Assembly: GCA_045533875.1 (NCBI GenBank)
Contig: JAZSIQ010000107.1
Span: forward strand, 14,673-78,672
Source of the DNA: Acutalibacteraceae bacterium
GTDB taxonomy: Bacteria; Bacillota; Clostridia; Oscillospirales; Acutalibacteraceae
Length of the DNA: 64,000 bases
Direction: 5' to 3'
Shown: one piece after another, positions 45,045 through 47,970 of the stretch
Numbering within the stretch: position 1 is the first letter of the stretch
How the letters are laid out: each line of letters begins with the position of its first letter
Made by a program: the position numbers and the translations under genes
Notes under the pieces: model-generated
The model's database searches: none
Told to the model about the DNA's origin: nothing
What the model saw: the letters and a program-made list of their open reading frames with translations, nothing else

Positions 45045-45079
45045 AAAGAGTGACTGCATTCAGGATGCAGCCACTCTTT
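45045..45079 (+). terminator. Hairpin between argG and argH
   Basis: aaagagtgactgcat/atgcagccactcttt. Confidence 0.55.
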
Positions 45080-45101
45080 GCGTTTACTGAAAGGAGTAAA
45101 T

Positions 45102-46409
45102 ATGAAGCTCTGGGCAGGCCGCTTTTCAAAGGAAGCGGATAAAAAAACCAACGATTTCAACTCCTCCATTGCAACCGATTCAAGGATGTATGAGGAGGAT
45201 ATTACAGGCAGCATCGCTCACGCAACAATGCTTGCCGCCAAGGGTATAATTTCAAAAGAGGATTCTTTGCAGATTTGCACCGCTCTTGCCGAAATTAAAG
45301 AGGAAATTGCAAACGGAACTCTGCTTATTGACCCCAATGCAGAGGATATACATACTTTTATCGAGGCAACTCTTACCGAGAGAATCGGCAGCGCAGGCAA
45401 AAGACTGCATACAGGCAGAAGCCGTAACGACCAGGTAGCGGTTGACATTCGCCTTTATCTGAGAAAAGAATGCGATGCGCTTTATGAGCTTGTTGAAAAG
45501 CTTATAGCATCCATTGAAAACAAGGGTGATGAATATAAGGACGCAATTATGCCCGGCTATACTCACCTTCAGAGAGCGCAGCCCATTACCTTCAAGGCTC
45601 ATCTTACCGCTTACGTTGAAATGCTCAAGCGTGACCTTGGCAGACTTGCCGATGCAAAAAAGAGGATGAACGTTTCTCCTCTGGGCAGCGGAGCCCTTGC
45701 GGGCACAACCTATCCCATTGACCGTGCGATGACCGCTCAGTTGCTCGGCTTTGATTCTTATACCCTCAGCACCCTTGACGGTGTGTCGGACAGAGACTTC
45801 TGCCTTGAGCTTGCAAGCGTGCTTTCAATAATTATGGTGCATCTTTCAAGGCTTTCGGAGGAAATAGTAATCTGGTGCTCCTGGGAATTCAAATTTGTTG
45901 AGCTGGACGATGCTTTTTCAACCGGCTCCAGCATAATGCCCCAGAAGAAAAACCCCGATATCACCGAGCTTGTAAGAGGCAAATCGGGCAGAGTTTTCGG
46001 CGACCTTATGACTCTTCTCACCGTTATGAAGGGCTTACCGCTTGCATACAATAAGGATATGCAGGAGGATAAGGATGCGATTTTTGATGCTTTTGATACC
46101 GTCAAAATCTGCGTGGATACTCTTATCCCCATGATTGATACGATGAAAGCTATTCCCGAAAATATGAGAAAAGCGGCGGCAGGCGGATTTATAAACGCAA
46201 CTGACTGCGCTGATTACCTTGTTTCAAAGGGACTTCCTTTCAGAGATGCATACAAGGCAACGGGCGAGATTGTAGCCCTTTGCATAAAGAGCGGCGAAAC
46301 ACTTGAGAGCCTTTCGCTTGATAAATACCGTGAGGTATGCGAACTGTTTGACGAAGGCGTTTATGAAGCAATAAAGCTTGAAAACTGCGTAGCACGCAGA
46401 GGAATGTAA
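45102..46409 (+). CDS. argH: Argininosuccinate lyase
   Basis: LWAGRF, HTGRSRNDQ, GSSIMPQKKNPD, YNKDMQEDK. Confidence 0.97.
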   Translation: MKLWAGRFSKEADKKTNDFNSSIATDSRMYEEDITGSIAHATMLAAKGIISKEDSLQICTALAEIKEEIANGTLLIDPNAEDIHTFIEATLTERIGSAGKRLHTGRSRNDQVAVDIRLYLRKECDALYELVEKLIASIENKGDEYKDAIMPGYTHLQRAQPITFKAHLTAYVEMLKRDLGRLADAKKRMNVSPLGSGALAGTTYPIDRAMTAQLLGFDSYTLSTLDGVSDRDFCLELASVLSIIMVHLSRLSEEIVIWCSWEFKFVELDDAFSTGSSIMPQKKNPDITELVRGKSGRVFGDLMTLLTVMKGLPLAYNKDMQEDKDAIFDAFDTVKICVDTLIPMIDTMKAIPENMRKAAAGGFINATDCADYLVSKGLPFRDAYKATGEIVALCIKSGETLESLSLDKYREVCELFDEGVYEAIKLENCVARRGM

Positions 46410-46412
46410 TAT

Positions 46413-46447
46413 AAACACGGGTTGTCACAGACAGCCCGTGTTTTTTT
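46413..46447 (+). terminator. argH terminator
   Basis: aaacacgggttgtc/gacagcccgtgttt plus T run. Confidence 0.8.
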
Positions 46448-46453
46448 GCATCA

Positions 46454-46620
46454 GAAAAGCGCCCTCTTTACGAGGACGCTTTTCCTTTTGCATTGGGTTT
46501 TGAATTGAGGAGGGGTATTGTAGTCCCATGCGGTCGGGACTATAGAGTCGGCAAAGGGTGCGGCTCCCTTTGACCTCCGACTGATTGAAGTATAGCCGCC
46601 AAATATTAATCCTGTATGAA
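46454..46620 (-). ncRNA. Candidate orphan small RNA
   Basis: Two stable hairpins with CCGCA loops, a CCCCTCCTC tract and its own terminator; possible TTTACA-17-TAAAAC promoter. Confidence 0.5.
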
Positions 46621-46662
46621 TATTGTTTTAACTTATTGGGGATATTTTGTAAACTCTGAAAA

Positions 46663-47838
46663 TCAGGTTTCAAGGTAATCGGAAATAGCGATAACGCCGC
46701 CGTCCTCACGGAAAACACGGGGAACTCTCTTGTTGATGCCGCAGATTATTTCGTAATTTATCATGTCACACTTTTTTGCAATATCCTCTACCGTTATAAC
46801 ATCGCTGCCGAAAACGGTTACGGACATTCCCTCGTGAATATCCTCAATATCCGAAACATCGAGGATGCATTGGTCCATGCATATCCTGCCCAGTACGGGC
46901 ACTTTTTTGCCGTTTACAACCATGTACGCACGGCCTGAAAGCTTGCGTGGCAGACCGTCAGCATAACCTACAGGTACGGTTGCAACCTTCATCGGTTTAT
47001 CGGAAACAAAGGTGCCGCCGTAGCTTATGGGGGTGCCTGCAGGGATGGTTTTGACCATGGAAACCACGGTTTTCATCTGCATTACGGGCTTTAAACGAAT
47101 GTGGCTGCCCACATATTCTGAGGGCGCAAGACCGTAAAGAATAATGCCGGGGCGCACAAGGTCAAGCTGCATTTCGGGGTAAATGACAGTTGCGGCGGAG
47201 TTGCAGCAATGCTTTAATTCGAATTTAGTACCGAGAGCCTCAACCTCATGAATAAGCTTTAAGAAAAGGTCATATTGCAGGCGGGTGAAAATCTCGCCGT
47301 TTTCTTCATCGGCAAGTGCAAAGTGAGTGAATATTCCTTCAGGATAAAGACCGGGGAGGGAGCAGGCGTTTGCAATATCCTGCGCCGTAGCGGCATCAAG
47401 CTCGGAATCGTGAAACATAAAGCCGAGGCGGCTCATGCCTGTATCAACTTTAATATGTATTCTTACTTCAACGCCGTTTTCTTCGGCATCGGCAGAGAGC
47501 GCAGCGGCATATTCGGGATTAAAGACCGCCTGAGAAATTCCGTTTACCGCAAGGGATACGGAGTATTCGGGGGGAGTGTAGCCAAGAATAAGCACACAGC
47601 TTTCGGGTGAAACGCTTTTAACCTGCATTGCCTCTTCAAGATTTGAAACGGCAAACCACTCACAGCCGAGTTTGACAAGCTCTTTAACGATATACTCAAC
47701 ACCGTGACCGTAGGCATCAGCTTTTACAACTGCCATGATTTTAGCACCCGAAGAAATCTTGCGGCAGATTTCGCCGTAGTTTTCACGCAAAGCGTCCGTG
47801 TCAATATTCAGCCATGTTCTTCTGAAATATTTTTTCAC
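46663..47838 (-). CDS. alr: Alanine racemase
   Basis: AVVKADAYGHG, HIKVDTGMSRLG, VRPGIILYG, GYADG, GRICMDQ. Confidence 0.96.
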   Translation of the reverse strand: MKKYFRRTWLNIDTDALRENYGEICRKISSGAKIMAVVKADAYGHGVEYIVKELVKLGCEWFAVSNLEEAMQVKSVSPESCVLILGYTPPEYSVSLAVNGISQAVFNPEYAAALSADAEENGVEVRIHIKVDTGMSRLGFMFHDSELDAATAQDIANACSLPGLYPEGIFTHFALADEENGEIFTRLQYDLFLKLIHEVEALGTKFELKHCCNSAATVIYPEMQLDLVRPGIILYGLAPSEYVGSHIRLKPVMQMKTVVSMVKTIPAGTPISYGGTFVSDKPMKVATVPVGYADGLPRKLSGRAYMVVNGKKVPVLGRICMDQCILDVSDIEDIHEGMSVTVFGSDVITVEDIAKKCDMINYEIICGINKRVPRVFREDGGVIAISDYLET

Positions 47839-47970
47839 TCCTGAGGCCTCCAATGATATTTTATGCCGATAATATACCAGTCTAATATATAATTATATGA
47901 TTTAAATTAAATTATGTCAAGAAAATTCACGGCTGCAGATACGTTCGTATCCGCAGCCGTGAATTTTTTG

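Follow-up and report, generated by a model that had tools for sequence, protein, structure and literature searches.

The 253-bp gap between the convergent argH and alr genes of this Acutalibacteraceae bacterium holds a small RNA (sRNA) gene that is read on the minus strand and that, with its promoter, occupies positions 46653 to 46453 of the window (the whole 64,000-nucleotide stretch of DNA that was analyzed). We are highly confident that it is a structured RNA gene conserved independently of its neighbors, and it belongs to a new, previously uncatalogued sRNA family of a known functional kind. Taken as a whole, the explanation that we consider probable is that of a complete sRNA gene whose unpaired C-rich tract would pair with the purine-rich SD regions (GAGGAGGGG-type) of mRNAs and block the initiation of translation, whose invariant hairpin loop would make a second contact, to RNA or to protein, and whose transcription would be driven by an OmpR/PhoB-family response regulator bound to phased promoter boxes. 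Hardly any regulatory RNAs are known from the gut Clostridia, which are abundant and mostly uncultured. This sRNA makes a clean candidate for a novel family, with strong covariation, an invariant seed, a single copy per genome and a presence in ~60% of the sampled genera of the family and beyond.

Table 1. Window coordinates of the sRNA gene, its promoter boxes and the flanking genes.
Feature	Position	Strand	Details
argH	45078-46409	+	Lyase_1/ASL_C2 domains
argH terminator	46413-46443	+	Separate neighbor, outside the sRNA; terminator scan and fold
sRNA intrinsic terminator	46485-46453	-	14-bp stem, GUAAA loop, U-run within the 3' arm
Second C-run of the seed region	46497-46495	-	
Invariant seed core UACCCCUCCUCAAUU	46517-46503	-	30/30 genus members
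Unpaired tract CCCCUCCUC	46515-46507	-	
Single-stranded seed region	46520-46486	-	Unpaired in the MFE and centroid folds
Hairpin 2	46542-46521	-	UAGUCCC / GACCGCAU loop / GGGACUA; MFE fold
Hairpin 1 loop AGCCGCA	46565-46559	-	
Hairpin 1	46582-46546	-	Outer stem AGUCGG/CCGACU, inner stem CAAAGGG/CCCUUUG; MFE fold
Predicted RNA 5' end	46582 +/- 2	-	First base of hairpin 1
-10 hexamer TATACT	46594-46589	-	TATAAT-like in all genera, 6-7 nt before hairpin 1
Box 5 TTAATA	46609-46604	-	-15; ends 9 nt ahead of the -10
Box 4 TTCATA, best conserved	46620-46615	-	-26; TTCAYA 81-92% per position
Box 3 TTAAAA	46631-46626	-	-37; first two positions T in 92-94% of promoters
Box 2 TCCCCA, degenerate	46642-46637	-	-48, in 11-bp phase; weakest box family-wide (T C.. 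a c a)
Box 1 TTTACA	46653-46648	-	-59 from the -10 start; TTaAcA conserved among 131 non-identical family promoters
alr	46663-47853	-	Ala_racemase N and C domains

An earlier reading, made without database searches (here the sequence-only reading), had placed two hairpins, an unpaired tract and a terminator on the minus strand of this gap. All are present at those positions and agree with RNAfold, and the terminator is, as had been proposed, distinct from that of argH; the two terminator hairpins stand back-to-back between the convergent genes (46413-46485). The 132 nt from 46583 to 46452 fold at -50.8 kcal/mol (z = -5.25), with none of 200 shuffles folding equally well, and the helices that RNAfold returns are hairpin 1, hairpin 2 and the terminator hairpin, with ~35 nt that include CCCCUCCUC left unpaired.

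These helices are far beyond chance, because they covary in 30 species of the genus and in 28 further genera. Homolog covariation was among the checks that the sequence-only reading had put forward. The model-guided alignment of the 30 species from the genus has 94.1% of its cells paired and double-sided changes at 28 of the 30 base pairs, and none of 500 column shuffles matches any of five measures, while the 28 other genera give 93.5% paired cells and double changes at 29 of 30 pairs; both alignments were fitted to the model and are biased toward the structure. When the partners were slid by 1 to 3 columns as a control, pairing fell to 40-52%. In a raw MAFFT alignment the inner stem of hairpin 1 varies among GCGGG/CCCGC, GCAGG/CCUGC, GAGAG/CUCUC and AAAGGG/CCCUUU. 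Both stems of hairpin 1 covary, as do all 14 pairs of the terminator across the family. Hairpin 2 is optional, with unrelated sequences in about half of the genus and none in the remainder, and the closest relative (92% identical) has acquired a compensatory pair in it. A further structured domain on the 5' side of hairpin 1 was considered and rejected, as RNAalifold predicts no pairs there and the region is the promoter.

Two segments stay fixed while the stems around them change. The hairpin 1 loop, GAGCCGCA, shows no change in any of the 30 species and hardly any between genera, and the 15-nt UACCCCUCCUCAAUU is likewise invariant in 30 of 30 species while the adjoining stems vary. In the other genera the linker reads CCCUCCUCAA followed by a second ACCCCUCAA. 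An alternative conformation had also been envisaged, in which GGCTATA (46597-46591) pairs with TATAGTC. This does not hold, since GGCTATA overlaps the -10 and thus lies outside an RNA made from the element's own promoter, and the 92%-identical relative has an uncompensated change in the partner segment.

The sRNA is single-copy in its own 2.18-Mb MAG, and BLAST finds it in 32 of 36 sampled genomes of the same genus, where the best-kept block is the unpaired C-rich tract. R1, a covariance model of 30 genus members, detects it in 57 of 150 sampled Acutalibacteraceae genera, and R2, for which 32 sequences of 29 genera were used, in 89 of the 150, nearly always as one copy per genome, and in 15 of 143 genomes sampled from the order's other families; both surveys are based on samples, and the E-values of both models are rough. 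The carriers include four genomes that are closed or nearly so, with 1-2 contigs (G069, G131, G186 and G195). The element had been described as an orphan, a label that its presence in 89 genera removes. An exact pattern (GAGCCGCA, a gap and TACCCCTCCTCAATT) searched over 185,579 species genomes gave 107 records, all of them uncultured Acutalibacteraceae or "Clostridia" MAGs, mostly from the guts of goat, sheep, deer, horse and similar animals. One of the other families (f10) keeps every hallmark of the sRNA, and the remaining ones keep the promoter type, the 5' hairpin, the C-rich linker and the terminator. A group of distant relatives (L236, L237 and L238-L245) has promoters of the TTCAYA-N20-TATACT type and C-rich linkers such as ACCCCUCCUCAAU, UUACCCCUCCCCAAAC and AUUCCCCCCUCCUAUU, with a different hairpin loop; judged from their sequences, they suggest a superfamily broader than R1 and R2 capture.

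In the Rfam check that the sequence-only reading had proposed, a cmscan of the element against all 4227 families of Rfam 15 gave no match over it at E <= 10, and five relatives of the sRNA had none at E <= 1; the nearest Rfam match in the vicinity is a single sub-threshold, terminator-like one. The element has its own predicted promoter and terminator, independence of its neighbors, covariation and an unpaired seed, which are the generic marks of an independent trans-encoded sRNA gene. The proposal of a trans-acting C-rich sRNA is supported in its core, a noncoding gene with an unpaired anti-SD tract, by the covariation, the invariant seed, the variable flanks and the conserved promoter and terminator, and gives way in its particulars, namely, the orphan status, the promoter, the length and the two conformations.

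The neighborhood bears on whether the element might be mere 3' UTR or terminator of alr, or bidirectional terminator padding, with no function by itself. No terminator separates the alr stop (46663) from the element, which alr transcripts must therefore traverse, and the sRNA terminator is the only one available to alr; its A-run and U-run make it terminator-like on both strands, and alr is the upstream neighbor at 14 of 147 related loci. Against this, the element carries its own boxes and -10 and sits behind many different genes, with an SBP_bac_5 (solute-binding protein) gene upstream at 64 of the 147 loci and varied genes at the rest, while the downstream neighbor is mostly convergent. A 15-nt unpaired tract that is invariant while stems covary is also not expected of terminator padding, and we consider such a functionless element very improbable. 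No conserved open reading frame was found on either strand across the relatives compared; the small frames in the window (a plus-strand MRSGL and a 34-amino-acid minus-strand frame through the terminators) are not conserved, and hairpin 2 is missing from many species. The varying flanks together with the lack of a conserved reading frame show that the element is neither a leader nor padding, and the sequence-only reading was correct that this independent, terminator-ended unit is not a 5' leader.

At locus L102 and 63 others, the sRNA lies ~100 nt downstream of, and in the same orientation as, a gene for a family-5 solute-binding protein (a weak SBP_bac_5 match). By analogy, this neighbor may be a target or a co-transcript of the sRNA, and it is of interest because the LhrC sRNA of Listeria reportedly targets oppA. 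The neighbors were also considered as a clue to the regulator of the sRNA, but none of the conserved ones is a regulator gene, the commonest being the SBP_bac_5 gene.

The invariance of the loop raises the question of which part of the RNA does the work. The sRNA could act mainly through protein binding or loop-loop kissing at the (N)GCCGCA(A) loop, the C-rich tract being secondary, as the constancy of GAGCCGCA over covarying stems would allow. Of 128 distinct family members, 27 have another hairpin loop with CCGCA, which belongs to hairpin 2 in the clade of the window and to the terminator in several other clades, and extra CCGCA copies amount to 0.45 per RNA vs 0.09 in shuffles (about five times), an excess that comes partly from stem arms and related species. 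These second loops and the excess over shuffles give some substance to the idea of a repeated loop motif, and a protein or kissing-loop partner is possible. However, the majority of members (77 of 128) carry CCGCA only once, the relatives in other families keep the C-rich tract and change the loop (e.g., GGCAAGC in L236 and L237), and no candidate for a protein partner is known. We think it unlikely that the loop is the main site of action. The earlier suggestion of a protein-titrating RNA with repeated CCGCA loops keeps some support: the hairpin 1 loop is indeed invariant and a second loop is present in about a fifth of members, but the majority carry one loop only.

The promoter of the sRNA has an unusual and readable layout. 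TT(A/C)A(C/T)A direct repeats stand at -59, -48, -37, -26 and -15 with an exact 11-bp period, as determined from 131 non-identical promoters, and there is no -35 at 17-bp spacing, the phased boxes standing there instead. Box 4, the best conserved, ends 20 nt before the -10 and is too distant for a normal -35. The TATAAT-like hexamer 6-7 nt before hairpin 1 places the predicted start at ~46582 and gives a predicted RNA of ~130 nt, shorter than the ~165 nt that had been predicted. That earlier figure went with a promoter read as TTTACA(46653)-17-TAAAAC. Both sequences are present, but they are boxes 1 and 3 (TAAAAC overlaps box 3) rather than a -35 and -10, and they imitate a promoter because these boxes lie 22 bp apart; as other genera conserve the TATAAT hexamer ahead of hairpin 1 and the two hexamers are phased repeats, we rejected this pair. 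Sporulation sigma promoters were set aside as well, since the spacing and the hexamers are unsuitable.

The hallmark of promoters under activation by OmpR/PhoB-family response regulators is a tandem array of direct hexamers, one helical turn apart, right next to the -10. The sRNA promoter has this form, with tandem direct hexamers at a 10-11 bp period that abut the -10 and take the place of a -35 at 17 bp, and from this layout it is probably response-regulator dependent, with the caveats that the boxes form an AT-rich motif of low information content and that the -10 (TATACT) and box 2 of the window are imperfect. No regulon could be defined with a position weight matrix of the whole promoter, which was either overly specific or dominated by AT content.

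A looser pattern of the promoter (TTCAYA-N5-TWHAHA-N8-10-TAHHHT), searched on both strands of the whole 2.18-Mb genome, has three matches vs ~0.6 expected by our own estimate from base composition. One is the sRNA promoter itself, one is the RBS and start codon of a different gene read in complement, and the third (contig C158, position 1788) precedes an operon (C158:1873-5828; L168) that encodes an OmpR-family regulator, a HAMP-HisKA kinase and a 546-amino-acid HtrA/DegP-type protease with a PDZ domain. The operon promoter has six phased boxes, the same 9-nt gap to a TATAAT and a box 4-type box at the same distance as in the sRNA promoter. Across 41 genomes of the genus the pattern matched 118 times vs 46 for a reversed control, and of the 118 at least 27 are sRNA promoters and 10 are orthologous regulator promoters; most other regulator promoters in the genus differ by one base of spacing, and 4 of 5 other genera keep TTCAYN in front of the regulator gene, at a distance of exactly 20 nt from its TATAAT. 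Other recurrent matches in the genus are unrelated orthologous intergenic sequences. One recurrent false match, seen in the same-genus genomes G007 and G015 (L228:1-140 and L229), is a small XRE-type HTH gene that follows a palindromic, operator-like TTCATATGAATATTATATTCATAT.

With its own promoter of the same unusual geometry, the regulator of this regulator-kinase-HtrA operon would be the best candidate for the protein that reads the boxes of the sRNA, and we tentatively propose, from the sequence of the two promoters, that it may be the one acting there. The promoter code would in that case tie the sRNA to a specific two-component system and protease operon, a testable circuit where none has been described, and the sRNA would be the posttranscriptional arm of an envelope or secretion stress response. 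The regulator has the helix RTVDVHVKRLREKLE and is the most YycF/MtrA/PhoB-like of the five OmpR-type regulators of the genome, and its best NCBIfam matches (YycF, MtrA and PhoB) all fall below the curated cutoffs. The gene was found in 131 of 150 genera of the family at 59-86% identity, and on sequence grounds the regulator-kinase pair is an unusually well conserved two-component system that no curated orthologue model matches at its cutoff. Because the regulator is nearly ubiquitous in the family, its co-occurrence with the sRNA is a poor guide. In the genomes with a completeness of 90% or more, 74 of the 113 that have the regulator also carry the sRNA, as do 2 of the 12 that lack it (Fisher P = 0.0015), a test that overstates the association given that the genomes are related and that those lacking the regulator are mostly small.

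A different protein could read the boxes of an sRNA otherwise as described, for instance a PhoP-like phosphate regulator or an unrelated DNA-binding protein, or the boxes could be a UP-like, AT-rich element of a constitutive promoter; we rate this whole set of options as rather unlikely. In two genomes that are 99% complete and have the sRNA (G085 and G143), no orthologue of the regulator or of the kinase was found, and G085 keeps the full box array. These absences are compatible with the random loss of one contig from the MAGs, and they could equally reflect another box-reading protein. The low information of the box motif leaves room for other readers, and boxes of the form TT(A/T/C)ACA fit the PhoP box of Bacillus subtilis as well. 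Yet PstS (PF12849) was not found in the genome, which makes a Pho assignment unlikely. Also against the other readers, the rare geometry recurs at the regulator's own promoter in the genome of the window, in at least 10 genus members and in 4 of 5 other genera, and the exact 11-bp phase with conserved T-T and A positions is not general AT-richness. The WalR half-site of B. subtilis is TGTWAH (PMC9210968), and boxes TTTACA and TTAACA fit its reverse complement, DTWACA. Wal operons are, however, reported as not autoregulated (PMC9210968), which counts in favor of a different reader if the HtrA-linked system is taken for a Wal-type one; for this reason and because of the sub-threshold scores, we do not name the system WalRK. 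An autoregulated, HtrA-linked system would be more reminiscent of CiaRH, LisRK or CssRS, by resemblance only.

The proposed circuit with the HtrA-linked regulator invites comparison with the C-rich sRNAs of Bacilli. The csRNAs of streptococci have two stem-loops, an unpaired anti-SD region and promoters with a hexamer repeat of 5-nt spacer, 10 nt from the -10 (PMC3091779). The sRNA is like them in being short, in opening with a stem-loop, in continuing through an unpaired anti-SD region and in ending with a terminator stem-loop. Its promoter, like theirs, lacks a -35 and has in its place directly repeated hexamers, 5 nt apart and ~10 nt from the -10. The CiaR site is NTTAAG-N5-TTTAAG, 10 nt upstream of the -10, with an essential final G (PMC3091779), whereas the sRNA promoter has TTCATA-N5-TTAATA-N9-TATACT (TTCAYA/TTAAYA) with no G at position 6, so that the likeness is one of geometry only, and it has five phased boxes instead of two. 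The CiaR two-component system is tied to the HtrA protease (PMC3091779), a parallel to the HtrA-linked system that we propose as regulator here. The CiaR helix, VVEVYVSKVRKKL (VVEVYVSKV/IRKKL), is unlike the RTVDVHVKRLREKLE of the candidate regulator, which is thus not recognizable as a CiaR orthologue. The csRNAs also differ in matching an Rfam model, where none matches the sRNA, in being multicopy, where the sRNA is usually single-copy, and in their hosts, which are Lactobacillales and not Clostridia (Oscillospirales).

The LhrC1-5 sRNAs of Listeria monocytogenes depend on LisRK and carry UCCC motifs (PMC4132741). The envelope stress two-component system LisRK is mandatory for LhrC, as the HtrA-linked system may be for the sRNA, and the C-rich (UCCC) motifs of LhrC bind SD regions and block translation, as is predicted for the C-rich tract here. 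They differ in that the sRNA has no Rfam match, has its C-rich motif solely in the linker, with GCCGCA and not UCCC in the loops, and is mostly present as one copy per genome. By analogy, the comparison points to an sRNA that works like the csRNAs or LhrC without belonging to either family. It would extend a Firmicute theme, from envelope stress sensor to C-rich anti-SD sRNA, from Bacilli to Clostridia. A further relative in kind is RsaE/RoxS, which is controlled by an OmpR-family regulator (SrrA/ResD). This conserved sRNA of the Bacillales is C-rich and targets SD regions (PMC8216469), and the sRNA shares with it the C-rich character and, putatively, OmpR-family control; it does not match the Rfam RsaE model at E <= 10, its architecture and promoter are different, and nothing about it points to redox or NO control.

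The combination of a 5' hairpin, an invariant unpaired tract containing CCUCC and a terminator is the anatomy of the Firmicute C-rich sRNAs that occlude SD sequences. The sRNA therefore most likely represses translation by pairing its seed with SD sequences, and we regard it as a probable anti-SD base-pairing repressor. A k-mer complement search found no long perfect complement at any RBS in its own genome, and neither this search nor an RNAduplex ranking gave a compelling target. With RNAduplex, the top candidate among ~1640 crudely called starts is a BlaR1-like M56 membrane sensor at -28.1 kcal/mol (mean, -12.0; standard deviation, 3.7), followed by RemA, a SpoIID-domain protein and several unannotated proteins, all of them modest candidates. 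GGAGG-type sites are ubiquitous, and anti-SD pairing leaves target specificity and the invariant GAGCCGCA loop unexplained. One more elaborate scenario, to which we attach little probability, is a convergent csRNA/LhrC-like solution in Oscillospirales, an HtrA-linked stress output in which a CCUCC tract resembling the 3' end of 16S rRNA would damp the translation of a set of secreted or envelope proteins and the invariant GCCGCA loop would recruit a dedicated protein. If true, that GCCGCA-binding protein would be a candidate sRNA chaperone for a clade without a described one.

Two features of the regulator operon touch on the sRNA directly. About half of the genus members (L173-L200) have a G-rich RBS (AGGAGGGG) on the regulator gene that is complementary to the sRNA seed; in the genome of the window, GGAGGGG occurs at 14 of 1642 crudely called starts. 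The sequence of this RBS hints at feedback of the sRNA on its candidate regulator. For the genome of the window itself such feedback is not supported, the RBS there (GGAGGGC) ranking 547th of 1641 predicted targets. Separately, TTGCGGCT is found at a fixed place (~-59 from the -10) in the regulator operon promoter of about half of the genus (L172-L197; e.g., L186, ~1380-1400). It complements the invariant sRNA loop AGCCGCAA exactly, with only TGCGG at that place in the window's own genome and no occurrence seen in other genera, and the match may reflect coincidence, a site that acts at the DNA level or a contact with RNA.
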